Of a DNA stretch of 61,357 nucleotides, positions 38,344 through 61,357 are shown piece by piece (the first letter of the stretch is position 1; each line of letters opens with the position of its first letter). Origin of the DNA: a virus. Lineage: Duplodnaviria > Caudoviricetes. The position numbers and the translations under genes are program-made. The stretch is from positions 1 to 61,357 of IMG/VR virus record IMGVR_UViG_3300048584_000008; one strand, 5' to 3'. Below the pieces are notes generated by a model that was not told where the DNA came from, made no database searches, and saw only the letters and a list, made by a program, of their open reading frames with translations.

Positions 38344-38372
38344 ACTATACTGACCTAGGCCCCTCTTGTCAA
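38344..38372 (-). promoter_or_regulatory. Sigma70 promoter for the tRNA cluster
   Basis: TTGACA-N17-TATAGT. Confidence 0.85.
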
Positions 38373-40664: not shown

Positions 40665-41043
40665 TCTTTTTCTCCTTGTCTTTGTTAGCGTACTCAGCCT
40701 GTAGCCGAGACGCGGCACCCTTCTCTGGGCGGTCATCTACTAGAACACCCACACTTAAAGCATCCAGCACTAGTGCTGCACAGGCCATAGCATGGGCAAG
40801 GTGGTGTACTTGTGAATCTTGAGCCAAGTCTTCCCCATCCCAGAAGGCATCCCAATGTCGCTGGGCTGCAGCCTTGTAGGTAGAGATAGAGATGGGGGAA
40901 GTACGCCAATTGTACGGGCCGTACTTACTAGCACCATCCGCCAGTGCCAGTGCTAGGTAGTGCACGGCAGACGGCGGTACTAGGTGAAGCGGTACTTTGG
41001 TGGCACCTACTAAAGTCTTCGGGTTGTTATCAGGATAGTTCAT
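40549..41043 (-). CDS. dATP/dGTP diphosphohydrolase-like (DUF5664) protein
   Basis: NPK...K.PL.LVPP, GASKYGPYNW, RH....DGED.A.DS.VHHLAHA. Confidence 0.85.
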   Translation of the reverse strand: MNYPDNNPKTLVGATKVPLHLVPPSAVHYLALALADGASKYGPYNWRTSPISISTYKAAAQRHWDAFWDGEDLAQDSQVHHLAHAMACAALVLDALSVGVLVDDRPEKGAASRLQAEYANKDKEKKIEATARLRELQVTLATCPTVQRAQDFNRGGIPHPTNCS

Positions 41044-41627
41044 AGGTCGCTCCATTGTGCAGCCATAGCGGCTGCGAATCCGGGAAAGGTTGTGCTTCTA
41101 ATGCCCGCTCTCTCGGCGCTAGGTGGAAGGTTATACCATTTAGGTAAGCTACGTCCAGACTTAGTTACGTGCCTCTCCCCCTTACCTACGATGTTAGTAG
41201 GCACGAGCTTAGGCAGGTTCTTCAGCCATAGGCAAGTAGTCTTTGTTGCTTCGTCGCCAAACATCCACGGCTGTACTATCTGGTCAGGCTTACGGATGTA
41301 GCTAGAGATTACACTTACTGGATTTTCGATAGCTATCTTAGGAATAGGTGCGTCCATCAGTAGCTGCACAAATCGTAAGGCTTCTTTCTGTTCTTTCTGC
41401 TTATCCTTAAACCATCTAGCGCCGGACACTGCGAGGTGGGTACACGGCGGATGGGCAATCATCAAGTCCCACTTACCGTTGTATGCAGTCAGTAACACAT
41501 CTGCTTGAATGTGATACGGGCTGTCGTCGGGGCTGGGGAGCAAGTCAAAGCTCCAAGCATCATGGCCTAGCGCACGAAACGCATCCCGGACCCTACCTGA
41601 AAACTCACACGCTACCAGTACTTGCAT
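41040..41627 (-). CDS. Short phage-type DNA cytosine-C5 methyltransferase
   Basis: LVACEFSG, DLMIAHPPCT (catalytic PC), IAIENP, QPWMFG...K.TCLW. Confidence 0.8.
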   Translation of the reverse strand: MQVLVACEFSGRVRDAFRALGHDAWSFDLLPSPDDSPYHIQADVLLTAYNGKWDLMIAHPPCTHLAVSGARWFKDKQKEQKEALRFVQLLMDAPIPKIAIENPVSVISSYIRKPDQIVQPWMFGDEATKTTCLWLKNLPKLVPTNIVGKGERHVTKSGRSLPKWYNLPPSAERAGIRSTTFPGFAAAMAAQWSDL

Positions 41628-44725: not shown

Positions 44726-44792
44726 TGCTCCTATAATGCTCTATATAATATATGCTCTTATATATTTATATATATTTATATATTATATATAT
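44726..44792. other. AT-rich origin-like site 2
   Basis: Pure A/T 44758-44792; TGCTC(C/T)..TA repeats including GCTCTTATA shared with site 1. Confidence 0.55.
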
Positions 44793-44814
44793 CTCTTCGC
44801 TGACCTAGGTCCAG

Positions 44815-44843
44815 ATTATAAAGACCTAAGCCACTCGTGTCAA
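44815..44843 (-). promoter_or_regulatory. Consensus sigma70 promoter for the polymerase operon
   Basis: TTGACA-N17-TATAAT. Confidence 0.9.
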
Positions 44844-48285: not shown

Positions 48286-48413
48286 TTCTTTCTCCAGTAT
48301 AGAAAGTCGAGAAATCCAAGGAACAACACAAGCAGCAGCACTAAGCCGACTACCATGCCCAGCTCAAACAGGGCCTTTGCCGCCCAGAACTGTATGGATT
48401 CAATGAACGTCAT
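48282..48413 (-). CDS. 43-aa membrane peptide (not in ORF track)
   Basis: ATGA overlaps at both ends; MTFIESIQFWAAKALFELGMVVGLVLLLVLFLGFLDFLYWRKK. Confidence 0.65.
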   Translation of the reverse strand: MTFIESIQFWAAKALFELGMVVGLVLLLVLFLGFLDFLYWRKK

Positions 48414-49288
48414 TTGCTAACCTCCTTAATATCCTGCGGTATATGCAGCACGCTTTCCTTAATCAACCAGTCAACCAGCTGCTCTTCGCTCAGGTCCTTT
48501 ATGTCCTTGTCCAGTCTAGGTACGTACACCTTAAGCTTGTTACGTATACGCAGGGCGGTCTTAACTGCCTTATCGTAGGCGTCCTTATCCAGAGCAAGGT
48601 GTACACTATCATACCCTTGCTGAACTAGAGCTGAAAGGAGTTCGTCTGACAGGTTTGTACCGAGCAGGGCCACGGCATGTAGATACCTCGACGCCCGTAT
48701 AGCGGATAGCTGGTCCTCTACTATGATGACTTCCTTAGCACCGGCACACGGGTACCATGCCCCCCTGTTACCGTCGAGGAACGACAGGGTTTTAGGGCCG
48801 TCGTTAGTACCTAGGCTACGGGCAACAAAGCCATACAGCTTACCGTATGTATCTCGTACGGGCATGAGCAGCCTCCCCTCCCCTTCCCGGGCGTACTCTC
48901 TTGTCCAGCTCAGCTCGCCCCGAGCGAAATCCTGTTGCCGTAGGAAGTACCTGTCCGCAAGGTATCCCGATACTCCTTTAGGGAGCGGACCTTTTCCAGT
49001 AAGGCGATAACGTTCGACACCACTGAGTCGCTTGGGTCTCCCTGCCTCAAAGCCTTCGTATACATCTCCGTTGCCGAGTACCGTAACTCCTCCTCTAAGA
49101 GAGCAAGCCGCACGATGGCAGATGAAGAGTAAGGAATGGTTAACTCTGGAAACTGAGAAAGTACGCTCACCTGTTCGACCGCCTTCGCAGGCGGGGCAGA
49201 GTCTTCCACTAACTGAAACCCCATCGGCAAGCGTTCCGTATTCAAGTCGTACGGCGTCGGCGTATTGATGTTTTGCATTTGTATTCAC
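48410..49288 (-). CDS. DNA primase (Zn finger plus Toprim)
   Basis: CPAC...CHRAAC; IIVEDQLSA, ALLGT, LALDKDA, KDIKD. Confidence 0.9.
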   Translation of the reverse strand: MNTNAKHQYADAVRLEYGTLADGVSVSGRLCPACEGGRTGERTFSVSRVNHSLLFICHRAACSLRGGVTVLGNGDVYEGFEAGRPKRLSGVERYRLTGKGPLPKGVSGYLADRYFLRQQDFARGELSWTREYAREGEGRLLMPVRDTYGKLYGFVARSLGTNDGPKTLSFLDGNRGAWYPCAGAKEVIIVEDQLSAIRASRYLHAVALLGTNLSDELLSALVQQGYDSVHLALDKDAYDKAVKTALRIRNKLKVYVPRLDKDIKDLSEEQLVDWLIKESVLHIPQDIKEVSK

Positions 49289-49297
49289 TTCCCTTCC

Positions 49298-50572
49298 TTA
49301 ATGTAAGACCGCGTTATTGCGGAGCTTATCAATCTCTTGTGATACAGCGTCGGCAATACTATCGGCATCCTTGCTTGAGTTATTACGACGGACAACGAAC
49401 GACATCTCTCTTGCCCCACTTACGTTATCAACTACGGGGAAGGCACCAACAATTACCACAGGTACCACCGCCTCCTTGCGTATGAACTCATAGGCACCGG
49501 GAGATACGTGGCGCATCACAGCCCGTGTGCTGTCTCCATCCAGCTCGGCCTCACCATACAGGGTGTAGGAATCGGAGTCGTATACGTCACCCATAAAGCT
49601 GCATTCCACGCCCGCTACAGCAGCTACCTTGGCAAGACGCATTTCCTCTTCGTTGGCGTGTACCTTGAACTTCATTCGTACCTTAGCCCCAGTAGGGGCG
49701 GGAGTAACAACAGCGGGAGTTACCTCTGCCGGCTTTAGCAGCGCCAGCATACTATTGACCATCTGCTCTTGCGTGTTAACCACCGAGTAGCCACGCGACC
49801 TACCCCGTCTGGACCAGCCGGGCTGCCACTCCCCCTCGTTGTACACTGCAGCCGGGGTCACGGCCTGCGGAAGAGGAGAAGAGCTGAACTGGCGGGGGTT
49901 CGTGACATCGAACGTGTACTTACGCTCGGGCTTGAGATCAAGTACCTCAGGCTCAAGGGACAGACCGTTGCGACGGCAGAGCCACGCCATCATCTCTGGC
50001 TCGGACGCCAGCAGCATGCGGTTAGTGTCCTTGATGTAGCCTGCAAACATCGGGCGATCTGCGTTACGAGCGATGAACAGCTTATCCTTCTCATCCTGAT
50101 CGTACCACACGAAGGCGAACGCACCCTTGAACAGAGCGAACGCCTCGTCACCCTGCTCGGCGATCATGTTCATCGCCCACTCTGAGTCCACGTCATACTT
50201 GACAGAGTTCCAGCCCTGAAGCGTGCCGTTGTGCACGCCTATAAGCAGAGACTTATTAGCCTTCTCTGCCGTGAACGGATGGGCCGTGGCGTCGAGGATA
50301 TCTCCCGTAGTAGCCGCCCGATTGTGTCCGATAGTAATCCGGCTGCTGTCTGTGTCCCTAAGAAAGCCGCTAGCCTTAGGGTCATTAACGAAATCCCAGC
50401 CTGCCTTAGCAGCCTTATAGGAGTACAGCTTCTTAGCGTCTAGCTGAAAGAGCCCAGTAGAATCATCCCCTCGCAGGGAGTTACACACCAGAGCCTGCTC
50501 GAACAGCTTTGTGATAGACAGGTCAGCACTACGACTACCTTCCCCATTAACTATACCTACGATACCACACAT
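49298..50572 (-). CDS. Class II (Ntn) glutamine amidotransferase
   Basis: MCGIVG, RGDDSTG, GHNRAAT, AHPF, HNGTL, DSE. Confidence 0.92.
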   Translation of the reverse strand: MCGIVGIVNGEGSRSADLSITKLFEQALVCNSLRGDDSTGLFQLDAKKLYSYKAAKAGWDFVNDPKASGFLRDTDSSRITIGHNRAATTGDILDATAHPFTAEKANKSLLIGVHNGTLQGWNSVKYDVDSEWAMNMIAEQGDEAFALFKGAFAFVWYDQDEKDKLFIARNADRPMFAGYIKDTNRMLLASEPEMMAWLCRRNGLSLEPEVLDLKPERKYTFDVTNPRQFSSSPLPQAVTPAAVYNEGEWQPGWSRRGRSRGYSVVNTQEQMVNSMLALLKPAEVTPAVVTPAPTGAKVRMKFKVHANEEEMRLAKVAAVAGVECSFMGDVYDSDSYTLYGEAELDGDSTRAVMRHVSPGAYEFIRKEAVVPVVIVGAFPVVDNVSGAREMSFVVRRNNSSKDADSIADAVSQEIDKLRNNAVLH

Positions 50573-51768
50573 TAGAACTGCTCCTCATTGATACCCTCGG
50601 GCTGATCAGGTAGTCCTACCTCAACGGGCGGCTGCTCGCCAAAGGGCGACGGGTCGTACCCCCCGGAAGTGAGATAGGGCGGCGGAGTAGTTGGTCTAGA
50701 CCTCGCTCTAGAAGACTCCTGCATCCGCGCGAGTTCGCTGATAGTAAATGTCGCACCCGATGTAATTACCTCTGGCCGTGGGATAGCCGAGGCACGCACG
50801 GTGGTTGTCTTAGGACGGGCAACCTTAGGTGCCGGAGGCTTGACTTCTGGGCGCTTAGCTCGGGCCTTACCGATAAACGTAGCGAGGAGATTGTTGGTCT
50901 CCCACCCACGCAGCGCATCCGAGTCAGCCCCACCGTAGCACGCGATCATACCAAGGCGACGATACGCCTGTCTGTCAGGCACGATGCTACGCAGCTGGCT
51001 GCCGAAGGTAGGCATCAAGGACTCGATGACGGCCATGTCTTCGGGGCTGTTGTACATACTGAGCACGGATACATCGCGCTCGGCCAGTTCGGTTGCTGCC
51101 TTCTTAAGCTCCATCAACAAATGAATCCAGCGGATAAGCCGGCCCATGTCCGAAAGCCCGGGCATGTGGCGGAACTCGATAGTACCATAGCGCATCAGCG
51201 CATACAGGTTCAGACCATAGTACCTGCTGGCGTTGCTGCTCGTGTCATTCAGCAGACGGGAAACGGTCTCGATGCTTTCACTACGCAGCACAGCAACGAG
51301 CGGCTCAGGCGGAGAGTCCTCGAAGGGGTGGCAGTACGAGCACCACTTGCGCTGCGGATCAGACAGACGGAAGAACGCATCCTCGTAGATGTAGTAGAGG
51401 GCGCAGAGATTGTGCAACGACTCCATCGTGTCCGTGTCTTGCCGCATGTTCATGTGGATATGCACCGACGTGCGCGGTCCAGTCGTGTAGCTGGTGACGA
51501 AGCGGAAGAAGTCGTTGATCGCCTGCGTTAGGTGGGTGCCCATGAGTGGCTCGGCCAGTACCAGCTCGGTACCACTACGAAGGCTGTGATCTTCCTTGTT
51601 CTCCCAGAAAGGGGACTCCGCCAGCAGACGACGCACCTGCCCATTGCTGTAGTTCTCAATCTCTATCTCCACTCCGATGTACTGGCCGGCGAGGGGCCAC
51701 TCCGCACCCGGCTGAGGGATGAGCATCGGGCGGCGCTGGGTAAGACGGAACAACTTAGTGTTAGCCAC
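50572..51768 (-). CDS. Amidoligase (COOH-NH2 ligase, glutamine synthetase-like)
   Basis: IGVEIEIE, DHSLR.G.E, RTSVHIH, RYYGLNL, GTIEFRH. Confidence 0.88.
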   Translation of the reverse strand: MANTKLFRLTQRRPMLIPQPGAEWPLAGQYIGVEIEIENYSNGQVRRLLAESPFWENKEDHSLRSGTELVLAEPLMGTHLTQAINDFFRFVTSYTTGPRTSVHIHMNMRQDTDTMESLHNLCALYYIYEDAFFRLSDPQRKWCSYCHPFEDSPPEPLVAVLRSESIETVSRLLNDTSSNASRYYGLNLYALMRYGTIEFRHMPGLSDMGRLIRWIHLLMELKKAATELAERDVSVLSMYNSPEDMAVIESLMPTFGSQLRSIVPDRQAYRRLGMIACYGGADSDALRGWETNNLLATFIGKARAKRPEVKPPAPKVARPKTTTVRASAIPRPEVITSGATFTISELARMQESSRARSRPTTPPPYLTSGGYDPSPFGEQPPVEVGLPDQPEGINEEQF

Positions 51769-52417
51769 GGGTGGTCTCCTCTTCCCAAAGACTATTAACG
51801 GTGGGGTTACTTATGGACATTGTTACTGCTCCGCTCGGAGTGATGTAGCCTATTTTACGGCGGCGGTACAGGATATCAAGCTCTTCCGAACGGGGGCTAG
51901 GTGCTATCGCAAACTCCGCAGATGAGCAGAAGAACGGAATCTCCCCGGCCAGTACCTTAGGCAGGCCTACGGCAAACGGGGTGTACTTAGGCATCATCAC
52001 TGCCTCCATCTTCCTCTCTACCAGTACCGAGTGGTGGCGAGATGTAATACCGGGCTCGCCTAAGTAACCGAGGTTACTCTCGATAGCCTCACATGCGAAG
52101 TGAGGAACCACCAGCACGTCCTGCATGTGCAAGCCTCTACGAGTAGATGGGCGGCGAAAGTAATAGCCGAGGAAGTTGCCTGCCTCATCTTGGCGATAGC
52201 CCAGAGTGGGGTAGGAAAACTTATCCCACGTGTCGAAGTACTCCGCGTCGATGATCACGTCGTGCTCCTCTATCTCGCAGTTGGCATAGCGTACGGCTAA
52301 CGCCCGGCCTGAATCAGTTACACCCTGTAGTACGTGAGGCTTCCCCTTGTAGAGGAAGCTAGCTCCGTTAAACATATCGTTCGCGTAGCCGAAGCCAAGC
52401 TCCGAGAATAGGCTCAT
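51761..52417 (-). CDS. Conserved hypothetical protein of amidoligase clusters
   Basis: AAGGAG RBS before ATG 52417; PTLGY...RRPSTRRGL. Confidence 0.7.
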   Translation of the reverse strand: MSLFSELGFGYANDMFNGASFLYKGKPHVLQGVTDSGRALAVRYANCEIEEHDVIIDAEYFDTWDKFSYPTLGYRQDEAGNFLGYYFRRPSTRRGLHMQDVLVVPHFACEAIESNLGYLGEPGITSRHHSVLVERKMEAVMMPKYTPFAVGLPKVLAGEIPFFCSSAEFAIAPSPRSEELDILYRRRKIGYITPSGAVTMSISNPTVNSLWEEETTRG

Positions 52418-52418
52418 C

Positions 52419-53087
52419 TTAACTGCTCTCCTTTTGCACACGGGTGAGGGGGATCATAAACTTTGTGTTCTCTGTCGCAAGCAAGGCTCGGAAATTACGT
52501 ATCATCATCTCCTTCTCCGTCACCTTTGGGGCTGGTGTCTCAGGTGCTACAACAGCTATCCCCTTGCCGGGCATCTTGCCCTTGCTCATCACAGTATGGA
52601 AGCTACCATCCTGCATGTAGCGTTGCACCAAGAAGTTACCAGACTTACTGATGCTGTCCACCTTGTACAACTTAAGCACAGCAGTAAGGGCCTCCTCTCC
52701 GCTGCGTGCCTGCATGTCGTGCATCACGACGTAGGCAGCTAGCGCCGTAGGATAAGCTGAGACACGGTACTTCTGGAAAGGAAGTTCTACACTCTCTGCA
52801 GCTGGGGCTTCGGAGGCCACAGTTCTGCGTAGCCCTGCCCCATATACAATCTTGGCGGCCCCGGACTTATCTAGGGCCAGCACTACGCCCTTAACTCCAA
52901 CCTCGTTCGGACCACCTATACCGATAGCCCGGCACACTTTACTCAAGGCCTCAATCTTGCTAGCCCCACTACCTGTTACAACGGATACCTCCTTTACTTC
53001 GCCGCTGTCGTAGTGTACATGACCTATCCACGAGGCTAGACCTGTATCTTGTGGATCGTACGGCCAGTGATCATCGTGCTCCTGCAT
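52419..53087 (-). CDS. Hypothetical protein
   Basis: GAGGAG RBS before ATG 53087 (MQEHDD). Confidence 0.7.
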   Translation of the reverse strand: MQEHDDHWPYDPQDTGLASWIGHVHYDSGEVKEVSVVTGSGASKIEALSKVCRAIGIGGPNEVGVKGVVLALDKSGAAKIVYGAGLRRTVASEAPAAESVELPFQKYRVSAYPTALAAYVVMHDMQARSGEEALTAVLKLYKVDSISKSGNFLVQRYMQDGSFHTVMSKGKMPGKGIAVVAPETPAPKVTEKEMMIRNFRALLATENTKFMIPLTRVQKESS

Positions 53088-53841
53088 CTCTGACTCCTCT
53101 GATGTACTCGACGTAAGCAGCCAAGACCGTAGGGCTTTCGATACCCGGTGCCGTGTTGACTTCCAGGACATAGGCCTCTGTTCCCTTCTTGTTCACGATG
53201 ATATCAACTGCTCCGAAGTCAAGCCCTAACGCCTTGACTGCGGCAACAGAATACGAACGTACCTTCTCCTCTATTTCCGGTGAAGTAAAGCGAACATCGT
53301 TAACCGCAAAGACCCAGCCGTTAGCGGCGTTGCGGATGAGCGCGGCATCTCCTGTTAGCGCATCACCATTGCGTCGTCGCTTCTGCTGCACTACGGCAGC
53401 CCGATCACCCAGTACATGGACGCGATACTCCGCTGACTTGCGGATGTACTCAACGTACAGTGGGGCAGGCGGAATCACCGTGTCCTCTGGTCGTATGACT
53501 ATGATACCCCGCCCACCCGAGGCACGCAACAAAGTGCGGGCCAGATAAATCTTATCTCGGGGGGACGTTGTTGACAAATCGTCACCCGCCGATGGGACCG
53601 GGAGCCCCGCTGAGGACAGAATCGAAATGGACGTGGACTTGTTCACGGCTTGGGCTACTGCGGCGGGGCTGTTGAGCACGCGGTCGTGCGGAAGAGGCGA
53701 GCTGCTGCCCCAGTTCACGATCAAGGACGAGAGTATCCGCGTGTTCAATGCCCGTCCAGGGCGCAGACGACGAAAGTTCCCCGCCCTCTGCAATAAGAGT
53801 GCAGATGCGGATGGCCTGCTCCGGTAAACGTACACTGGCAT
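53071..53841 (-). CDS. ATP-grasp ligase (RimK/phiEco32-like)
   Basis: VNWG, NK, SGGRGI, EYRVHV, LGLDFGAVD, VLEVNTAPG. Confidence 0.92.
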   Translation of the reverse strand: MPVYVYRSRPSASALLLQRAGNFRRLRPGRALNTRILSSLIVNWGSSSPLPHDRVLNSPAAVAQAVNKSTSISILSSAGLPVPSAGDDLSTTSPRDKIYLARTLLRASGGRGIIVIRPEDTVIPPAPLYVEYIRKSAEYRVHVLGDRAAVVQQKRRRNGDALTGDAALIRNAANGWVFAVNDVRFTSPEIEEKVRSYSVAAVKALGLDFGAVDIIVNKKGTEAYVLEVNTAPGIESPTVLAAYVEYIRGVRDAGAR

Positions 53842-54715
53842 AGACTATATCTCCTATTACGAAGTCGTTGCGTGAAGACATGCGTATCGTATCAGACACG
53901 GTAATGCTATTGATGAACTGCTGCAGCTCCTCAGAGGTAGCATTAAGGGGGGGAAGAACCGGAGTAAGCATGCGCTCCACCAGCACACGTGAGTAGCTAC
54001 TAGCCTGAGTCATCACTGAGTGTGCAAAGCAGGCCGCAAGCCACAGGTCTACTCTGCTCTCGACCCGCTCGGCCACATCGTACACGAACTCAACGCACCG
54101 CCGCAGGTTGCTGGGGTCTAGCGTACTTGCCGGAGCGCGGAACTCTAGCACCCACGTCGGACTGCTCGGGTCTACCTGCCTCATCCGTGCGGGCTGGTAC
54201 TTCGTGGGGCTGGTATACACGGTACGGCTACCGTTTCCACCAAAGGCACCAAGACGCATACTTGGCACGCCTGCTGTGGCTCTGGTTGCTACTCTCCCTG
54301 CTACTCGTGCTACCTCGGGAGTCATCCAGCCCAGCAGGTATGCCACTACCTGCCGCTGTCTGTACGACCAGTCGCTGACGTTGAAGTTGACGTGCATGCC
54401 GTACCCGGAGCGAGTCTCTTCCGTACCGGCAGCACGCAACCGCTCCATCATACGGGTTATGTACCCGTTGTCAGCCAGCACTTCCTCCACTGGTAGTGGC
54501 GGGCACACAATCTCTACTCCGTTGCGGTTGTCGAGAGACCCGTCAAGTTCGAGGATAGGCGCAGGCCATTGCCCATACTCAACCTGATCCATCGCTTGGG
54601 CAACTACATCGGAGCCGCTGTTGTGGTGTACCTCAAGCTCAAGGCCGATCCACTTACCTGACAGGGCACTCTCTCGCCAGTCAGGCTGCTGCGAGTGGTA
54701 TGAAGTAATACGCAT
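53582..54715 (-). CDS. Second amidoligase
   Basis: SYHS, IGLELEV, DGSL...GVEIVCPP, GYGMHVN, KY, LEFRAPAST. Confidence 0.85.
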   Translation of the reverse strand: MRITSYHSQQPDWRESALSGKWIGLELEVHHNSGSDVVAQAMDQVEYGQWPAPILELDGSLDNRNGVEIVCPPLPVEEVLADNGYITRMMERLRAAGTEETRSGYGMHVNFNVSDWSYRQRQVVAYLLGWMTPEVARVAGRVATRATAGVPSMRLGAFGGNGSRTVYTSPTKYQPARMRQVDPSSPTWVLEFRAPASTLDPSNLRRCVEFVYDVAERVESRVDLWLAACFAHSVMTQASSYSRVLVERMLTPVLPPLNATSEELQQFINSITVSDTIRMSSRNDFVIGDIVYASVRLPEQAIRICTLIAEGGELSSSAPWTGIEHADTLVLDRELGQQLASSARPRAQQPRRSSPSREQVHVHFDSVLSGAPGPIGG

Positions 54716-54718
54716 GGG

Positions 54719-55339
54719 TTACACCTCTCTGCCGTAGGAGGACGCTCCACTCGTGGGAACCGAGCACACACCGGGGCCGCCGATGACAGCCGGAGTGTTG
54801 TGGCTGCGGTAAGGGCGGAAGCCACTGTGAGAATACCAGATGCCGTTATCCCACGTACCCTGTGCAGCGTTGGCAATCAGGTACGTGTTGTCGCTGAACA
54901 AGAATGCCATCTTGTTGTAGTAACCAACCAGCTCTCCTATCTTGGTGAGCTGCTCTCCTACCTTGCCGGGAGTAGCGTACTCCAAGATAGCCGAGGCAAG
55001 GATGTTGGTATCCGAGGGACCAGTCTGTCCCGGGTAGAAGAAGCTGCCGTTGTGGATGATAGCAGTCTTGCCGTTGCTGAACGGGTGGGTGTTATCCGCC
55101 GACCTGTCACCACCCGTAGAGATGCGGAAGTGGATGAGGAAGTTGGAGTCAGGGTTATCCCGCTCGTCTGCCCGGTAGCTGGCAATGAAATCACCTATCT
55201 CGAAGAAGCCCTTGCGTACCTCGACCTTATCCTCCTTGACGAAGGCATAGCCGCCGCCGTCGCGGTTCTGCGAGGCACAGTGGCGCAGGATTTCGTCGGT
55301 GATAACAGTACGGCGGGGCCGAACAATTGCGATGCACAT
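54719..55339 (-). CDS. Short class II glutamine amidotransferase
   Basis: MCIAI, NRDGGG, HFRIST.G, NTHPF, HNG, SDT, WYS. Confidence 0.9.
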   Translation of the reverse strand: MCIAIVRPRRTVITDEILRHCASQNRDGGGYAFVKEDKVEVRKGFFEIGDFIASYRADERDNPDSNFLIHFRISTGGDRSADNTHPFSNGKTAIIHNGSFFYPGQTGPSDTNILASAILEYATPGKVGEQLTKIGELVGYYNKMAFLFSDNTYLIANAAQGTWDNGIWYSHSGFRPYRSHNTPAVIGGPGVCSVPTSGASSYGREV

Positions 55340-55355
55340 CTTTACACCTTCCTTT

Positions 55356-55371
55356 TATATACCGGGATATT
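55356..55371 (-). repeat. GGTATAT hairpin motif copy
   Basis: + strand TATATACCGGGATATT, directly upstream of the GATase RBS. Confidence 0.7.
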
Positions 55372-55467
55372 AAAACTCAGTACTTGAAGCCGGGATTGCG
55401 GGGCCAGCGTGGGCGAGACCTCATCCTAAGATGGATGAGGACTGCCACAACAGCGACGGCACCGATG

Positions 55468-56487
55468 CTAGCGAGCACCAGCACGGCGCGCTTCCTGCAC
55501 GACAGGCATGTCCCCGGTAGCAGTCAGCGGGCTACGCTGCTCCAGCTGTGCGAACACGGCTTCGATACCGCCATAACCACCATCTCGGATGTACGTAGCA
55601 ATGGCGACAGTAACCTCCTTGTACCAGCGCAGCTTGAGGATATCCGTGGTGGAGTTGAACAGCTTCATCTCGATCCACCTACGAGGCTGGCCGTTGACGG
55701 TAGTACTCTGCGGGTAGAGGTAGCCGTAAGGCCTGCGCCCGAAGAGTTTGTACACGCAGTTGTCGGGCTCACCAGACCTATCACGCTCAGCCCAATCGTC
55801 GTAGTCTCCGTCGCAATCCTCACAACAGTAGCTGTCTGCGCTACCGCGCATATCCTCGATAGCTCTCGTCACTTCATTCACACGTGCCGCCACGACCACG
55901 CTGCCCCGATGGAGGGCCGGCCACGACACATTGAAGTGGGTACCAATCATGTCGCTGTTGTCCCAAAGCTCCGGCTGCTTGCCCATCACATTGTCGTAGT
56001 ACCCCAGCAGCTGGCACCCCGGCTCAAGCAGCTGGTCTGCCGGGATCGGCGGGAACGTAGCCTCAAGGGGGAACTCGTCGTAACCCTCCATGTCGGCGGT
56101 ACAGTACTCGCACTCGTCCATCAAGTAGGAGTAGGCCTTGCCGTGCTGGGTGGTGTTCTTAAACCCGGCCTCCACTTCCACGCCGATGAGCAGCGGGGCT
56201 TCCGGGTAACGGGCCACGAAGTCAACGTGACTCCACGGACGCACGCCCTTGAAGATACTACGCGTCAAGTTACCCTCTCGATACGCGGCGAAAAGCTGGT
56301 CAGCGGTAGCGCTGCTGAAGCTGACGTCGCGCCAGCGAGATGCCCACTCTGCAACGCTGCCCTTAGGCGTCTTGCCCTCACGGTACCGCAGATCATCCAG
56401 CCCACTGCTCATGAGCCCACTCAGTACGCCACTCATCTCAGTACGGAGACGGGAGTTCCCTTCGATATCCTCTTTGGTGACGATCAT
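55468..56487 (-). CDS. Third, divergent amidoligase-like protein
   Basis: LIGVEVEAG, LEATFPP, GTHFNVS, WIEMKLFNST. Confidence 0.7.
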   Translation of the reverse strand: MIVTKEDIEGNSRLRTEMSGVLSGLMSSGLDDLRYREGKTPKGSVAEWASRWRDVSFSSATADQLFAAYREGNLTRSIFKGVRPWSHVDFVARYPEAPLLIGVEVEAGFKNTTQHGKAYSYLMDECEYCTADMEGYDEFPLEATFPPIPADQLLEPGCQLLGYYDNVMGKQPELWDNSDMIGTHFNVSWPALHRGSVVVAARVNEVTRAIEDMRGSADSYCCEDCDGDYDDWAERDRSGEPDNCVYKLFGRRPYGYLYPQSTTVNGQPRRWIEMKLFNSTTDILKLRWYKEVTVAIATYIRDGGYGGIEAVFAQLEQRSPLTATGDMPVVQEARRAGAR

Positions 56488-56488
56488 G

Positions 56489-56692
56489 TTACGTGTCCTT
56501 CTTCAAAAGGGCGGTAAAGCCGGTGATGAGGCTGTCTCTCTGCTCCTGTTCGCTTGCTTCAAAGTCTACCCACTTGAAGAAGTTGCGAACAGCGCGGCGC
56601 TTGCGGGGGGCGGGGCCTACCGTGTCGAGGTCATAGCCCTCTTTGCGCCAGTACTCCTCCCACTCCTTGTCAATATCTCTGGACTGATTCAA
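56489..56692 (-). CDS. Hypothetical protein
   Basis: TTG start; operon packing. Confidence 0.55.
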   Translation of the reverse strand: MNQSRDIDKEWEEYWRKEGYDLDTVGPAPRKRRAVRNFFKWVDFEASEQEQRDSLITGFTALLKKDT

Positions 56693-56696
56693 GTTG

Positions 56697-56795
56697 CTAC
56701 TCTCTCTGGTTGTAGTTGCCGGGAAGTAGGTAGCTAAGGGCGCAAGCCCCAGCCAGTAAAAATATACCGATCAGGAAGAAGTATATTACCTCCAT
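56697..56795 (-). CDS. 32-aa membrane peptide (not in ORF track)
   Basis: GAGGA RBS; MEVIYFFLIGIFLLAGACALSYLLPGNYNQRE. Confidence 0.55.
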   Translation of the reverse strand: MEVIYFFLIGIFLLAGACALSYLLPGNYNQRE

Positions 56796-56796
56796 C

Positions 56797-56919
56797 TTAG
56801 TTCCTCGTGAGAAGTATCCACGCACCAACGATTACCGCCACCGCCACTAGCGGAGAGCTAGGCGGCAGTAGCAGTAGGAACACCAGCAGTAACGCCGCTG
56901 TGCCTATGCTTCCTCTCAT
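56797..56919 (-). CDS. 40-aa membrane peptide (not in ORF track)
   Basis: ATGA overlap; MRGSIGTAALLLVFLLLLPPSSPLVAVAVIVGAWILLTRN. Confidence 0.55.
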   Translation of the reverse strand: MRGSIGTAALLLVFLLLLPPSSPLVAVAVIVGAWILLTRN

Positions 56920-57155
56920 GCCTTGGCCTTGGGGGAAGGATTCCCAGTCGTCCGGGCGGTGGACTTCGGGAAGTGGATGACCCGCACCACGTCGTAAAGA
57001 CCGAGGATGATTTCCTTTGACGCCGAGTACGCGTGAGAGTGGGAGTTACCCATCTTCACGAACACACCTTCACGCGGCTTGTCGAATCCCTTCTCCTTGA
57101 GGATGCGGAACACGGCGCGGTTCGGCACATCTTTGAACTCCATGACGGTACGCAT
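56916..57155 (-). CDS. Basic hypothetical protein
   Basis: AAGGAG RBS. Confidence 0.7.
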   Translation of the reverse strand: MRTVMEFKDVPNRAVFRILKEKGFDKPREGVFVKMGNSHSHAYSASKEIILGLYDVVRVIHFPKSTARTTGNPSPKAKA

Positions 57156-57167
57156 TGCGGTATCTCC

Positions 57168-57521
57168 TTAGCCGATGAAAAGGTGAGAGTCGTTCGCATC
57201 TTCGTCCAGCCCAGACTGGTAAAAACGCCAGCTTGCGAACACGGTGGGGAAGTCGTCGCCGGCTACTGCAACCCTGTTGCCAGCGAACCACTTGCGGCGG
57301 GCCACGGTGCGCCCCACCTTGCGATTGAACTGGTCACGGCTGTCGCACTCGGCAAAGCTGGCGTACAACTGGCCGCTCTTGTCCGGGCGGATGAACGCCG
57401 TGGCATTGTCGACCACTCGCGTATCTCCCGGCTTATCGCCAAACACGAGCACGCTGACGTTACGCGCATGGTGGTACGTTTCCTTGACTTTCGTGGAACG
57501 GTGTGGGTGTTTGGTACTCAT
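57168..57521 (-). CDS. Hypothetical protein
   Basis: GAGGAG RBS; AEC..RDQFNRKVGR..A pattern common in phages. Confidence 0.75.
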   Translation of the reverse strand: MSTKHPHRSTKVKETYHHARNVSVLVFGDKPGDTRVVDNATAFIRPDKSGQLYASFAECDSRDQFNRKVGRTVARRKWFAGNRVAVAGDDFPTVFASWRFYQSGLDEDANDSHLFIG

Positions 57522-57553
57522 CGCACTTGCTCCTCTCTTGTTGTGAAACGAGG

Positions 57554-57639
57554 TGGTGCCAACGGCGGGACTCGAACCCGCACGGCATTTAGCCAGCGGT
57601 TTTTAAGACCGCTACGCCTACCAGTTACGTCACGTTGGC
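57554..57639 (-). tRNA. tRNA-Leu(TAA)
   Basis: GCGGT-CTTAAAA-ACCGC, variable arm, GGTTCGAGTCC, CCA. Confidence 0.92.
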
Positions 57640-57828
57640 TTTGGGTTCAAACAGATGGCCCTCCGGGCCGCAGATTCCAATAGTCCGCTCCTCCTCGCAG
57701 TCTCTTACCTGAACGTGCTCCGCTCCCGTCACAGGAGAGGTTTGCACGTCTGCGTAGCAACGGTGCTGCATGCCTCTCAGTGGCGCGTAGTACTGGAAGT
57801 GGTGCTTACAGTTTACGCAGAGCTTCAT
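57625..57828 (-). CDS. Small Cys-rich (Zn-binding) protein; stop codon lies inside tRNA-Leu
   Basis: GGAGG RBS; CVNCKH...C...SPVTG...C...CGPEG..FE. Confidence 0.7.
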   Translation of the reverse strand: MKLCVNCKHHFQYYAPLRGMQHRCYADVQTSPVTGAEHVQVRDCEEERTIGICGPEGHLFEPKANVT

Positions 57829-57866
57829 CTTGTAGCCTCCATTTATATACCAGTATATCTTTACTT

Positions 57867-57943
57867 TGGTGGGCCTGCTCGGGCTTGAACCGAGAACCAA
57901 ACGATTATGAGTCGTACGCTCTAACCAATTGAGCTACAGGCCC
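57867..57943 (-). tRNA. tRNA(CAT), most likely lysidine tRNA-Ile2
   Basis: ACGA-CTCATAA-TCGT arm and GGGCC acceptor resemble E. coli ileX; paired 1-72, so not an initiator. Confidence 0.8.
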
Positions 57944-57950
57944 GGCGATT

Positions 57951-58027
57951 TGGCGCGCCGAGAGGGACTCGAACCCCCGACCACAAGCTTAGAAGGCTCG
58001 TGCTCTATCCAGCTGAGCTATCGGCGC
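57951..58027 (-). tRNA. tRNA-Arg(TCT)
   Basis: CGAGC-CTTCTAA-GCTTG, A20-type D-loop CTGGATAG, CCA. Confidence 0.93.
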
Positions 58028-58037
58028 AAGCGTAGGG

Positions 58038-58292
58038 TCATGGCGAACATCCGTCCCCGGAGCCGTAGCCGTCGCCGCAGCCGTAGCCGTTGCCGGAGCC
58101 GTAGCCGTAGCCGGTGCCGGAGCCGTCGCCGGATTCGGAGCCGTGGCCGGAGCCGTAGCCGTAGCCGGTGCTGTAGCCGTAGCCGGCTCCCGAGCTGTAG
58201 CCGTGGCCGTAGCCGGTGCCGGTGCCGGAGCCGTAGCCGTAGCCGTAGCCGTCGCCGAAGCCGTAGCCGACAAGCCTCAGCGTGCGTGCCAC
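58038..58292 (-). CDS. Gly-X (Gly-Tyr/Ser/Asp) repeat protein
   Basis: GGC-NNC hexamer repeats over ~58050-58268; Gly at almost every second residue. Confidence 0.65.
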   Translation of the reverse strand: MARTLRLVGYGFGDGYGYGYGSGTGTGYGHGYSSGAGYGYSTGYGYGSGHGSESGDGSGTGYGYGSGNGYGCGDGYGSGDGCSP

Positions 58293-58594
58293 TTCGCACC
58301 GTCCGCGTCAATCAACGCAATGAGCGCCCGCAGAGGGGCGCGAACCGTTCCGGTGGCATCCAGCACGGTCTTGGGAAGCGGGCCATTGACCAGCTCGCCC
58401 AGCCCTTTCGTCGTTCCCCACACGCGGATATTCATCGCATGGTGGATGGTCACGAAATCGTTGGCGACCTGCACCGTCCCGGCGTACACGAAGCCTCGGT
58501 CAAGCACGACGATCTTAAAGTCACCCTCCGGCTTCGGCAGAGTGTCTGCGCGGACGTACTCGGTGTTGTCGATTTTGATGGTTGTGGGTGTCAT
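58277..58594 (-). CDS. Small beta-rich protein (DUF6948-like)
   Basis: AAGGAG RBS before ATG 58594; IVVLDRGFVYAG...A.NIRVWGTTKGLGEL. Confidence 0.7.
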   Translation of the reverse strand: MTPTTIKIDNTEYVRADTLPKPEGDFKIVVLDRGFVYAGTVQVANDFVTIHHAMNIRVWGTTKGLGELVNGPLPKTVLDATGTVRAPLRALIALIDADGAKWHAR

Positions 58595-58604
58595 GTAAAG
58601 CTCC

Positions 58605-58856
58605 TTAGTCGAACTCGTGGGAAATAAAGCAGAAGCCAGCGTAGCCACGGCCACGCAGCACTTCCCTGATGCGCGGGAACTCCGAGTAAACCTCGGGGAT
58701 TTTCTGGAGAGCGGCGTACAGCGGATAGCCGCCGGTCCCGGATGTCATGCCGAACATCACGCACAGGACGCGGGCCTCTTCGAGCGTCAACTCGACGATG
58801 ATCTTTTCGATCTTCGGCGGCGGCGCAGGTTCGCGGATTACGACTGCCTTGTTCAT
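58605..58856 (-). CDS. Hypothetical early protein
   Basis: AAGGGG RBS; ELTLEEA. Confidence 0.65.
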   Translation of the reverse strand: MNKAVVIREPAPPPKIEKIIVELTLEEARVLCVMFGMTSGTGGYPLYAALQKIPEVYSEFPRIREVLRGRGYAGFCFISHEFD

Positions 58857-58868
58857 GTTTACTGCCCC

Positions 58869-59159
58869 TTAGTAGGTGGTGGCGGCGGCGGATTCGACCA
58901 GCAGGCGCTCGACCCGCAGGTACGGGCGGGAGTTGGCCGGGCGATTCAGCTTCAGGATACCGGGCCGGCGAATATACCGAGTATATTCGGCAACCGCCTT
59001 GAAGCCCCGGAGTACCGGCTTGTACGACACCACCACCACGCGACGGGCGGTGTTGGAGCGCCGGACAACCAAGAGGTCGTCGGGCGACCGACTCGGCGGC
59101 TCGGGCCGGCGAGTGCGGGCGGCGACGATGGTGTGGAAATTGCGGGCAAAGTTACGCAT
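58869..59159 (-). CDS. Arg-rich hypothetical early protein
   Basis: AAGGGAG RBS; first gene after the promoter at 59281. Confidence 0.6.
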   Translation of the reverse strand: MRNFARNFHTIVAARTRRPEPPSRSPDDLLVVRRSNTARRVVVVSYKPVLRGFKAVAEYTRYIRRPGILKLNRPANSRPYLRVERLLVESAAATTY

Positions 59160-59228
59160 AGCAGGTGACTCCCTTAATCGAGCCGGCTGGCTCGGCCTAG
59201 GCAGCTAAGCATCTAACTGACTAGACCA

Positions 59229-59244
59229 AATATACCGGGATATT
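59229..59244 (-). repeat. GGTATAT hairpin motif copy
   Basis: AATATACCGGGATATT, identical to 60949-60964. Confidence 0.75.
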
Positions 59245-59280
59245 CGGTGAACGTCGGCTAACAGTTCCCATCTAGGAACC

Positions 59281-59309
59281 ATTATACTCCTATTCAGCTT
59301 GCTTGTCAA
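59281..59309 (-). promoter_or_regulatory. Consensus sigma70 early promoter
   Basis: TTGACA-N17-TATAAT. Confidence 0.92.
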
Positions 59310-59316
59310 GTGGCCT

Positions 59317-59526
59317 TCAGCCCAAATCGTCCTCCTCGCCAGCGAGGTACTCTACCAGCACCACGCCCAGCCACCCCAGCCCGAACGCCAGCGCGAAGCA
59401 TCCGGCCAGCCCCAACCAGCGTAAGGCGTCGGGCGCGTAGGTGACCACGAAGCCGACCGCCAAAATCAGGTTCATCAGAACCACCCCGGCCAGCACCACA
59501 CCGCCAGCATCATCAGGCTGCTGCAT
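59317..59526 (-). CDS. Two-TM early membrane protein
   Basis: Two hydrophobic helices, acidic tail. Confidence 0.65.
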   Translation of the reverse strand: MQQPDDAGGVVLAGVVLMNLILAVGFVVTYAPDALRWLGLAGCFALAFGLGWLGVVLVEYLAGEEDDLG

Positions 59527-59701
59527 TTTCTATCTCCTCGATGCGCTCCTCGAATCCGGCAATCTGCGCGGCAACTTCCGGCGAACGCCGGTACGGCTGT
59601 CCCCGAACCCCACACTCCAAAAGCCGGGCCAACTCCTCATCCCGCAACTCGGCCACGCGGGCCTTCATCGCGGCCAACAACTCCCGATGATGAGCGTTCA
59701 T
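59513..59701 (-). CDS. Hypothetical early protein
   Basis: TGATG coupling. Confidence 0.65.
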   Translation of the reverse strand: MNAHHRELLAAMKARVAELRDEELARLLECGVRGQPYRRSPEVAAQIAGFEERIEEIENAAA

Positions 59702-59889
59702 CAGGTCACCTTGGCAATCTTGCCGGCAACCATCGTGACCTCCGCGAACCAGTTACGCTTCGGCGGGCATCCCAGCACCTTACCATCCCGCCGGTACTCC
59801 GGGCCAAACACAGACGTTTCGCGGAACGCCAGCGGCTGCCCAACTGCCGCCTTCAGGTCTGCCTTTTTCTTGTAGTTAAAAATGACCAT
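59701..59889 (-). CDS. Small conserved phage protein
   Basis: GAGGAG RBS; Y..K..LKAAVGQPL...ETSVFGPEY...WFAEVTM..G.I.KV pattern. Confidence 0.75.
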   Translation of the reverse strand: MVIFNYKKKADLKAAVGQPLAFRETSVFGPEYRRDGKVLGCPPKRNWFAEVTMVAGKIAKVT

Positions 59890-60018
59890 CTAACTATCTC
59901 CTCGACCCTAGCCCGAACGGCTAGCGAATATACCAATATATTCGATAGGCGTCCAACTAACTACTAACCTCCGAGTCGCTATCTACTACTAACTAGATAG
60001 CTCTACCAACTAACAACT

Positions 60019-60047
60019 ATTATACGCCCATTCAGCTTCCAAGTCAA
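60019..60047 (-). promoter_or_regulatory. Sigma70 early promoter
   Basis: TTGACT-N17-TATAAT. Confidence 0.88.
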
Positions 60048-60099
60048 TAGGGGCTTAGGCGGATTCCAGGCGGTTGCTCCAGGCCCAGGATTTTAGGCC

Positions 60100-60129
60100 A
60101 AAAAAAACCCCCGCCGGTTAAGGCGGGGG
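60100..60129 (-). terminator. Intrinsic terminator after the first early gene
   Basis: CCCCCGCC-TTAACC-GGCGGGGG then T8 on the - strand. Confidence 0.9.
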
Positions 60130-60140
60130 CTTGGGGCTTG

Positions 60141-60827
60141 TTACGCGGCCTTACGCTTGCGCGGGGCTTCGGGCTTGGCTTCGGTCTTGGCTTCCACGTG
60201 GGAAGCCGCATCACCCGAACCCGTCGCGGCCTTCTGTTTCGCGAGGATGGAAACGGCGAGCGTTTCGGCTTCCCGCATGAATTCCGCGCGGAACGGGCCT
60301 CTAAGCTGCCCGACAACCTGCATGAGCGAGGACAGCGGCGCATCCTTCGCCAGCTCTGCGACGCTCTCGCCTTCGCCTTCGGTCTTGGCTTCGCCTTCGG
60401 GCTTAGCAGCGGCAGGACGGCCGGATGCAGCCTTCAGCTTGTGTTCATCCCAAAAGACATGGGCCGTCCAATCACCCCGGCTTGCGGTCACCAGCTCCGG
60501 CGGCAGGGCCAGCCCTTTCTTAGCGGCCTTGTACGCTCTCTTGAGGTCGCTGGCGTACTGTATGCCCCGCTGCATCGTTTCCTGTCCGGCGTCCTTCGCT
60601 TCCTTGCATTGCAGCTTCAAGGCTTCCAAGACCGCCAGCCCTTCCTCCTTATCCTTCGCAAGCACGGGGAGGAACGTATCACGGCACGCGTTCCAGGCGG
60701 TCGCTGTCGCGGCCTTGAGGGCGATTACGGATGCGTCACGCGTATCAGCTTCCAACTTGACGGCTGCGAACATGGCGGCAACGGCTGCGGACAGGGTGTC
60801 GCTCAAAACTTTGGTTTCGATGGTCAT
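60141..60827 (-). CDS. Ala/Lys/Glu-rich monocistronic first early protein
   Basis: AGGA RBS; 228 aa; own terminator. Confidence 0.75.
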   Translation of the reverse strand: MTIETKVLSDTLSAAVAAMFAAVKLEADTRDASVIALKAATATAWNACRDTFLPVLAKDKEEGLAVLEALKLQCKEAKDAGQETMQRGIQYASDLKRAYKAAKKGLALPPELVTASRGDWTAHVFWDEHKLKAASGRPAAAKPEGEAKTEGEGESVAELAKDAPLSSLMQVVGQLRGPFRAEFMREAETLAVSILAKQKAATGSGDAASHVEAKTEAKPEAPRKRKAA

Positions 60828-60909
60828 AAATAGTCCTAGTTTTAAAAGATATAGAACGGTAGCCCGAACGCATCCGGGCGCAAGGTAGGCGTTTCACCTA
60901 CCAGAAGCG

Positions 60910-60939
60910 ATTTTCTCACGGTTTCAGCTTGGAACGCAA
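60910..60939 (-). promoter_or_regulatory. Possible promoter for the first early gene
   Basis: TTGCGT-N18-GAAAAT with TG extension; AAGCTGAA sits 3 nt after the -35, as in the other early promoters. Confidence 0.45.
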
Positions 60940-60948
60940 GGGCTGGCG

Positions 60949-60964
60949 AATATACCGGGATATT
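60949..60964 (-). repeat. GGTATAT hairpin motif copy
   Basis: AATATACCGGGATATT. Confidence 0.75.
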
Positions 60965-61180
60965 CCCCGGTTACCCGGCGTTAAGCTTGGCGCTAGCACG
61001 GCAAGCCCCAACGGATGCTGAACAGCCGTAAGGCGATTTAACATTTATCCGGGGATATTGTGTTAGGGCCTGGGGATAGCCAATCAGCCCTTGCCTGTCC
61101 CCTTCCCATGTGATAGGCACGCTATGCTGCACCGCACCATGCGAACGCAAGCCGAAGCGCAAGCGGTAGTGCAAACGAAT

Positions 61181-61357
61181 CTGATTCGCATTCAGGGGCC
61201 GGGCCTTGGCCTTAACATTTATTTAACATAGGGGGGGGGTATCCCCTCGGCCGTCGCGCATGTGGGTGGGTAGGTCGGAGTCCCGCCACAGTACTTCCGA
61301 ACATTTCCTAGCATCTTCACATAATCTTAACAACTGAACTAATGACCGGCGGAGCGT
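61181..61357. repeat. Right direct terminal repeat
   Basis: Copy of 1-178 with G9. Confidence 0.9.

Follow-up and report, generated by a model that had tools for sequence, protein, structure and literature searches.

A strand-specific GGTATAT inverted repeat in the early region of a Caudoviricetes genome

We examined a short repeated motif in a stretch of DNA of 61,357 bp from an uncultured phage (hereafter the window), which is the whole of IMG/VR record IMGVR_UViG_3300048584_000008 (Duplodnaviria; Caudoviricetes; IMG/VR completeness 97%). The motif, ATAT followed at a short distance by GGTATAT, is real, strand-specific and confined to the early region at 55.3-61.2 kb, the promoter-proximal end of the minus-strand genes, and it has complementary flanks. 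Its core is under selection even inside a coding gene. We tentatively favour the reading that it is a cis-element of the early gene class, carried on the sense transcript and read by a sequence-specific factor, and would put this at somewhat below even chances.

Counted over the whole window, GGTATAT is unremarkable: it occurs nine times, with 5.66 expected, and 14 of 100 shuffled sequences reach nine. What is remarkable is their clustering: of the nine copies, seven are on the minus strand from 55357 to 60956. The early region was compared with 2000 dinucleotide-preserving shuffles of 5880 nucleotides (nt), the minus strand being taken as sense. GGTATAT is seen there seven times (shuffle mean 0.15, maximum 3) and the longer pattern ATAT.{2,5}GGTATAT six times (shuffle mean 0.0005, maximum 1), and none of the 2000 shuffles reaches either count. 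The antisense strand of the same region has no copy of either. Apart from a tandem repeat coding for Gly-Tyr, GGTATAT is the most over-represented 7-mer of the early region, which is also the most GC-rich part of the genome (GC 0.58-0.61 vs 0.49-0.57 elsewhere), so that an AT-rich motif is even less expected there. A comparison with shuffled sequence had been proposed in the initial annotation of this DNA, and the motif stands far above the shuffled early region; a chance coincidence of AT-rich words is refuted by this result, and we give it practically no weight.

All eight sites of the initial annotation are present on the minus strand, its coordinates being off by at most 1-2 nt. We call them H1 to H7 and Hv, and distances to start codons are counted from the last T of GGTATAT for H1-H7. 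Bit scores are those of a covariance model built from the six strict copies. H1 (60948-60965, GAATAT-CCCGGT-ATATTC; 35.5 bits) is followed after 8 nt by a weak promoter-like module, TTGCGT...AAGCTGAA...GAAAAT (60910-60939, 18-nt spacer), and lies 123 nt before the ATG (60827) of the first early gene. H2 (59925-59944, CGAATAT-ATTGGT-ATATTCG; 33.0 bits) is in the leader of early promoter P2, about 70 nt downstream of the predicted start, with the ATG at 59889 following 39 nt on; a GC-rich hairpin comes after it. H3 (59225-59248, ACCGAATAT-CCCGGT-ATATTTGGT, with one G.T pair; 34.2 bits) occupies the leader of early promoter P3, about 25-30 nt downstream of the predicted start and 71 nt before the ATG at 59159. 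H4 (58969-58989, CGAATAT-ACTCGGT-ATATTCG, 7-nt spacer; 32.5 bits) falls within the coding open reading frame (ORF) 58869-59159, 116 nt from the next start codon. H5 (57845-57858, ATAT-ACTGGT-ATAT; 30.0 bits) comes 8 nt after a transfer RNA (tRNA) gene, tRNA-Met, adjoins the ribosome-binding site (RBS) GGAGG and precedes the ATG at 57828 by 17 nt. H7 (55353-55375, TTTTAATAT-CCCGGT-ATATAAAA; 33.0 bits) adjoins the RBS GGAAGG, 18 nt before the ATG at 55339, where the first gene in common with the amidotransferase/amidoligase module of relatives begins. The placement originally described, in promoter leaders or against RBSs, is thus borne out by H2 and H3, which follow consensus promoters, and by H5 and H7.

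The other sites are less regular. H6 (56761-56787, minus strand, AATATAC-13 nt-GTATATT) is a probable degenerate member inside a 32-codon ORF, 70 nt from the next start codon, and its 9-mer CGGTATATT is common to H1, H3 and H4. Hv (61043-61059, minus strand, AATATCCCCGGATAAAT) is a degenerate variant in which a ATGTTAAAT motif has taken the place of the 3' arm or has merged with it; this motif is also present twice in the terminal repeat (61229 and 61218). The word ATGTTAA occurs three times in the window (61229, 61218 and 61044); two of these lie 11 nt apart in the terminal repeat, and the one at 61044 is merged with Hv. Outside the early region, an outlier copy on the plus strand (48429-48444, ATAT-CCTGCGGT-ATAT), opposite in orientation to the local genes, occupies the last codons of a primase-like ORF, with the RBS AAGGAGG and the ATG at 48413 coming immediately after it, and GGTATAT at 1190, within a plus-strand ORF, has no partner arm. 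The common orientation first reported holds for seven of the seven early GGTATAT words and is reversed in the outlier.

In an alignment of the six strict copies, the invariant columns are ATAT, a spacer of 6 nt (7 in H4) ending in GGT, and ATAT; the spacer of H6 is 13 nt. Two sub-families can be distinguished, with H3 intermediate between them: H1, H2 and H4 have CGAATAT...ATATTCGCYRGCC in common, and H5 and H7 have GGTATATAAAWGGARG, the motif fused to a Shine-Dalgarno sequence. When run against the whole genome, the covariance model found the same six copies (30.0-35.5 bits) and their reverse complements (13.6-24.9 bits), and at E<=10 it matched neither H6, Hv and the outlier at 48429 nor the middle and late genes; the model is small and its E-values are rough. 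Of the originally proposed set, H6 and Hv thus go unrecognised by a model of the six strict copies. A search of 54500-61357 on both strands with Rfam covariance models (E<=1) gave only three tRNAs above threshold. The general claim of an undescribed, phage-specific cis-element restricted to the early region stands: the motif is non-random, strand-specific and without a match to an Rfam family.

The ORF that contains H4 has a third-position GC (GC3) of 0.81, and five of its 18 A/T-ending codons sit in the six codons of H4. The nucleotide sequence of H4 thus appears to have been kept against the codon habit of its gene, which argues for selection at the nucleotide level. The invariance of ATAT...GGTATAT despite this codon bias and despite diverged flanks likewise points to selection on the core. 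It speaks against an explanation that we consider improbable, in which the copies would be relics of duplicated regulatory cassettes, similar to the PeSLs of T4-type phages, and would mark joints where small modules of promoter, leader and RBS had recombined or been duplicated in an ORFan-rich early region, with no dedicated trans-acting factor. That explanation would suit the extended similarity within the two sub-families. It would also suit the sequence downstream of H1 and H4: exactly 17 nt beyond each of them stands AAGCTGAA (at H4 in the form AAGCTGAAT), which is also the spacer word of P2 and P3. This module is weakly promoter-like after H1 (TTGCGT-18-GAAAAT), and after H4 both hexamers are lost. 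The early ORFs upstream of 56487 have no tblastn match in Xanthomonas phage DES1 or Stenotrophomonas phage StenR_269, the nearest cultured phages (tblastn, about 50% DNA polymerase identity), and this lack of homologues would again be in keeping with duplicated cassettes. In the available text of PMC2839356 and PMC4122927, PeSLs are repeated promoter-plus-stem-loop cassettes flanking ORFans. The portion available of PMC2839356 gives their stem-loops as GC-rich, stable terminators, whereas those of the window are AT-rich and weak.

According to the initial annotation, the flanks of the motif change but stay paired. With ten candidate pairs in six paralogous copies (60 cells), 81.7% of the cells are paired, compared with 69.4% ± 3.6 in 500 shuffles, and the covariation score is 0.36, compared with 0.14; each of these values is reached by one shuffle of the 500. 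Controls with the register slid were 28-62% paired. The outer pairs vary by copy: one column pair is AU in two copies, GC in two and UG in two, and its neighbour takes four pair types. The stem CGAATAT/ATATTCG shared by H1, H2 and H4 is mostly conserved sequence and not covariation. Continued pairing of changing flanks therefore receives modest support (1/500), and much of the shared stem is simply conserved.

Because part of the 'loop' is complementary to itself, the core can be described just as well as a DNA palindrome of 14 bp, a near-perfect one made of two abutting 7-nt half-sites, ATATNCC/GGTATAT. The right half-site is invariant and the left half matches it at five or six of seven positions in all six copies. 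As we read the alignment, departures from ATATACC/GGTATAT are found in the upstream half in seven cases of seven and never in the downstream half. Because all mismatches are upstream and the seven early copies have a common orientation, the element is directional, and directionality is not predicted by a simple symmetric operator.

Orientation, the asymmetry of the mismatches, covarying flanks, the variable spacer and presence only in early-transcribed DNA together favour a signal that is single-stranded and works in one direction, RNA being the simplest candidate. The variable spacer supports a loop, since a loop tolerates a change in length better than a dimer site does. Under the reading that we favour, the phage would be a lytic podophage relying on host RNA polymerase, and the element would be a class-specific signal of its early transcription unit, a short site prone to form a hairpin, with an invariant 3' half (GGUAUAU) that a sequence-specific factor, from the phage or the host, would recognise. 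The copies would punctuate the early transcripts, two in promoter leaders, one after a tRNA, two 5' of Shine-Dalgarno sequences and one in an ORF. The likeliest effect would be to coordinate how early messages are processed, how stable they are or how their translation is controlled, with a logic akin to a RegB-like or operator-like 'early tag'. That the active form is RNA rather than DNA, that its reader is a protein and that the outcome is of this kind is what we infer from these features.

We rank these effects above antitermination, which the initial annotation had listed among its options and which is poorly supported. The strict copies have no conserved boxA-like flank, and the only strong intrinsic terminator (60105-60132, minus strand, 11 pairs and a T-run) follows the first early gene, upstream of both P2 and P3. 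The remaining terminator candidates are at shuffle level (9 found vs 5.6 expected). An injection signal, also listed, is unsupported, the copies being spread across 5.6 kb.

A number of observations weigh against an element read from the transcript. Evidence restricted to the sense strand is thin: the G.T pair in H3, from which a function on the minus strand only had been argued, is present as described, and G.U cells outnumber A.C cells by 4 to 1 among the 60. Short segments have folding energies of -9.7 (H2), -11.1 (H3), -15.6 (H4), -1.1 (H5) and -2.2 kcal/mol (H7), and the minimum-energy fold of H1 favours a competing ACCGGG/CCCGGU helix instead. With ±100 nt of context, the probabilities of the four core pairs, calculated for H1-H5 and H7, are high in H2 (0.98-1.00) and H4 (0.90-0.91) and low in H3 (0.16-0.18), H1 (0.01), H5 (0.00) and H7 (0.00-0.01); those of the antisense strand are similar or higher. 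The argument for function at the RNA level is weaker than it was made out to be, with H2 and H4 folding and the other four of six copies folding poorly. The invariant GGU is in the loop in H1, H3 and H7 and partly in the stem in H4, H2 and H5, so a structure-specific reader would meet differing contexts. H1 lies upstream of the first gene's only promoter-like module and has no sigma-70-like site upstream of it, and for this reason it may lack sense transcription. To these points can be added the opposite orientation of the outlier at 48429 and the lack of any recognised RNA-binding protein or nuclease among the early ORFs scanned.

Weak folding, the two half-sites, the position of H1, the outlier and the palindromes of relatives favour a site on double-stranded DNA (dsDNA). 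The core could be an operator at which a dimeric phage or host protein shuts off early transcription by the host polymerase, or activates the first promoter via H1. We regard this as the main rival, possible though unlikely. The match of the left half to the invariant right half gives it the dyad symmetry that such a site should have, and the poor RNA folding of H1, H5 and H7 would be irrelevant to it. H1, 8 nt upstream of a -35-like hexamer, has a typical activator or UP position; H6 consists of two perfect half-sites set 11 bp further apart, about one helical turn; and a symmetric site could also occur inverted, as at 48429. An operator does not account for seven of seven copies in one orientation with every mismatch in the same half, nor for covarying complementarity of the flanks beyond the core, which would be superfluous for a protein binding dsDNA. 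The spacing differs by 1 nt in H4, and no site overlaps the -35 or -10 hexamers of the consensus promoters. All ten early ORFs scanned lack an informative family match and show no helix-turn-helix or other DNA-binding family. No DNA-binding family was found in the other scanned ORFs of unknown function either; ORFan proteins could still bind DNA.

One early protein was considered as the reader and dropped. The product of gp10 (57168-57521, minus strand) belongs to a conserved phage-only family (20 sequences) with an invariant AECDxRDxF...GRxxARRKWF, and has a weak Atlas lead to a cluster resembling the double-stranded RNA-binding domain (0.86). Its AlphaFold2 model (20 homologues) has a predicted local distance difference test score (pLDDT) of 67.5 and gave no fold match in PDB at E<=0.001.

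The relatives have repeated words of their own. StenR_269 and DES1 belong to a recently proposed group that is kin of Zobellviridae, and neither contains GGTATAT hairpins. The over-represented 12-mer of StenR_269 is a perfect palindrome, TTTAACGTTAAA, present 10 times (0.001 expected) and always at 159-24567, in the half of the genome with early and middle genes. The copies are mostly intergenic: six continue directly into a Shine-Dalgarno sequence, one is found ahead of a tRNA, and another two have a stop codon on one side and a hairpin on the other; the word presumably resembles the 'epsilon' region of the T7 gene-10 leader. DES1 has TTTAATGTTAAA 13 times (10 minus, 3 plus; 0.01 expected per strand), several of them inside genes. 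Six minus-strand copies inside early or middle genes are all in the frame TTT-AAT-GTT-AAA (one starts with ATT), and one of the two alternative frames has stop codons. No useful hairpin is possible in either 12-mer, so if they are functional counterparts of the window motif they favour a reading of DNA or of linear sequence.

Close relatives of the window are known by protein. A family member 87% identical to gp10 (P0003) is encoded on a metagenome contig of 46,306 bp, which shows that the phage has a close relative, and three proteins (P0023-P0025) are 64-67% identical to the giant virion protein discussed below. Scans of viral contigs with gp15, the amidoligase, the polymerase, P0012 and the gp10 alignment yielded no usable close relative, and a scan with P0003 yielded one relative at 36% (L250), in which the motif is not present. 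The polymerase alignment matched 61 loci, the best (L124/G001) being 54% identical, on a contig with 41% GC that is 49% complete; upstream of its polymerase we saw neither a repeated hairpin motif nor an obvious early region. The pattern GAATATNNNGGTATATTC matched at least 116 loci in viral contigs, once in each. Among the 116 foreign loci listed, the looser ATATNNNGGTATAT matched twice in five (L018, L055, L063, L071 and L120) and more often in none. The 55 matches of GAATATNNNGGTATATTCGC in genome contigs were all single, the order of magnitude estimated for chance from the size of the collection. DNA searches of cultured phages gave tRNA matches only.

Four near-consensus sigma-70 promoters lie on the minus strand, in an early and a middle class, each class with its own conserved spacer word. 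P2 (60019-60047, TTGACT-17-TATAAT) and P3 (59281-59309, TTGACA-17-TATAAT) have the spacer word AAGCTGAAT, and the two middle promoters (44815-44843 and 38344-38372) read TTGACA-nGAGnGGCYTAGGTC-TATART. These four consensus promoters indicate that the host polymerase is used, and the conserved spacers suggest class-specific regulation or recent duplication. Each early leader carries a further hairpin: in that of P2 (59945-60018, minus strand) GTTAGT-like repeats surround an 8-bp hairpin (GCTATCTA...TAGATAGC) ahead of H2, and in that of P3 a GGTTCC...GGGAAC hairpin precedes H3.

The use of host polymerase counts against the possibility that the motif itself is part of a promoter, which we consider distinctly improbable. 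It would be either a -10-like GG-TATATT for a host polymerase redirected by a phage factor or a hairpin promoter in single-stranded DNA, as in phage N4, for a virion polymerase. In its favour are the directionality of the motif and its position upstream of genes, at the genome end beside the terminal repeat; H2 also scores as TGGACG-17-TATATT with an extended TG. At H5 and H7, however, a start about 7 nt past TATATA would cut into the Shine-Dalgarno sequence. In the part of PMC4496689 available, the N4 early promoters are three hairpins with a 5-7 bp stem, a 3-nt loop and a GC-rich heptamer centred at -11, some stem positions being conserved and others variable. The window resembles this in having few co-oriented hairpins at the early genome end (6-7 copies, beside a 178-bp terminal repeat), and in its stems too some positions are conserved while others vary under the constraint of pairing. 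It differs from what that text describes in its AT-rich stems and the 6-7 nt between its ATAT arms, and no virion-packaged RNA polymerase like that of the N4 system is detectable in the virion protein here.

The case for a virion polymerase comes from StenR_269, whose large virion protein is annotated as 'putative virion-associated RNA polymerase'. In the available text of the StenR_269 paper this label is based only on size, lack of cysteine and helical content (PMC10747016). The homologue in the window (20849-28576, plus strand, 2575 amino acids) also lacks cysteine and has a HELLH motif. It has no sequence match in Pfam, PHROG or PDB, no T7-type B/C motifs and no DxDGD. Of 25 homologues besides itself, four were scanned against Pfam: P0031 carries ART-PolyVal, P0045 and P0046 have weak SprT-like matches just below the Pfam cutoff, and P0035 has none. 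The nearest ESM-Atlas clusters carry LPD38 or LPD39. An AlphaFold2 model of residues 1450-2575 (1126 residues, 25 sequences; pLDDT 69.4) is almost all-alpha, and a Foldseek search of PDB with this model gave no match at E<=0.001, the weak rows being alpha-solenoids and the top rows including no polymerase. The protein is best read, on predicted structure and distant homology, as a putative polyvalent ejected protein; the 'virion RNA polymerase' label of the group's giant protein is not supported, the fold evidence covering residues 1450-2575. The consensus sigma-70 promoters and the lack of an RNA polymerase fold in the modelled part of this protein make an N4-type hairpin promoter unlikely.

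A more speculative proposal, which we think improbable, is that the motif is an 'early-class tag', a lineage-specific nucleic-acid signal evolving together with a phage factor, which may itself be brought in from the virion alongside the giant polyvalent protein. Such a factor would mark the first-entering 6 kb, in the form of DNA extruded into hairpins or of RNA still being transcribed, for a dedicated programme of transcription or mRNA fate, and the 12-mers of StenR_269 and DES1 would be the same system with changed specificity.

The setting of the motif is as follows. A terminal direct repeat (1-178 and 61181-61357; 178/177 bp, 99.4% identity, one gap), whose ends differ by one C within a C-run, indicates that the record is a complete genome, its IMG/VR class 'linear' nonetheless. 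Late and structural genes occupy about 1-33 kb on the plus strand, and replication, nucleotide-metabolism and early genes about 33-61 kb on the minus strand. The early-region ORFs are small, with high GC3 (0.61-0.91), and three tRNAs lie among them. Directly upstream of two of these tRNAs is an 84-codon ORF (58038-58292, minus strand) that consists almost entirely of Gly-Tyr/Gly-Ser repeats, with 12 copies of tandem CGGCTACGG words. Runs of (TA)n and repeated AAGAGC/GCTCTT words characterise two AT-rich stretches, one preceding the late operon (741-1040) and one just downstream of the middle promoter at 44843 (44730-44800); both are candidate origin or late-control regions. The minus-strand genes at 40549-41055, 41040-41627 and 49298-55339 are a probable DNA-modification set, comprising a MazZ-like dATP/dGTP diphosphohydrolase domain (PF18909), a PHROG 'DNA methyltransferase', two amidoligases, two glutamine amidotransferase-like proteins and an ATP-grasp homologue. 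The phage genome may contain hypermodified bases.

Several familiar kinds of site were set aside by reading: a Chi-like site, which needs no partner arm; a nick consensus as in T5 or LUZ24, where the sites are genome-wide; iterons or an origin, the copies being unclustered; a sigma-54 promoter, with no GG-N10-GC fit; and the boxes of host regulators (ArgR, NrdR, LacI-type), whose consensus sequences do not fit the spacing. A literature search found no analogous motif, and we know of no described regulatory signals in the StenR_269/DES1 group. The accessible portion of the StenR_269 paper does not contain the words 'promoter' or 'hairpin' (PMC10747016).

An architectural parallel that includes a promoter is offered by the PeSLs of T4-type phages, which in the available text of PMC2839356 and PMC4122927 combine a stem-loop, a sigma-70 promoter and an RBS in ORFan-rich early or hyperplastic regions. 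H1 and H4, followed by a promoter-type module at a fixed 17 nt, resemble these composites. The window hairpins differ in being AT-rich, with energies from -1.1 to -15.6 kcal/mol and a T-run only at H6, and they are often downstream of a promoter; only H1 precedes a (weak) promoter-like module.

The RNase III sites of the T7 early region are irregular hairpins with long stems, some 20 bp or more. They resemble the window motif in punctuating, between cistrons, a long early transcript of the host polymerase, but the stems in the window have 4-9 contiguous pairs, short of a duplex of about two helical turns. The nut site of phage lambda combines boxA with a boxB hairpin that is bound by N. A leader hairpin downstream of an early promoter is found here only at H2 and H3 (two of seven), and the first gene after P3 and H3 encodes an arginine-rich protein of 96 amino acids. 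Against this likeness, there are 6-7 copies in the window rather than two, the loop type differs, no conserved boxA-like column is present 5' of the stem in the alignment of copies, and no strong terminators lie downstream of H2 or H3.

A motif of the early class would provide a handle on early-gene timing in a phage without its own polymerase, and if a cognate factor exists the two would make a compact, orthogonal pair of site and reader. Removing the 'virion RNA polymerase' label from the giant protein of the group also removes a misleading lead. The targets of T4 RegB are GGAG sequences in the ribosome-binding regions of early genes, read as a linear tetranucleotide. The window element is by contrast an inverted repeat of 14-24 nt, and no RegB-like family match was found among the early ORFs scanned. 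It is like the RegB targets in being a short sense motif that is confined to early messages and often placed at translation-initiation regions, where one factor could act on a whole class of genes.

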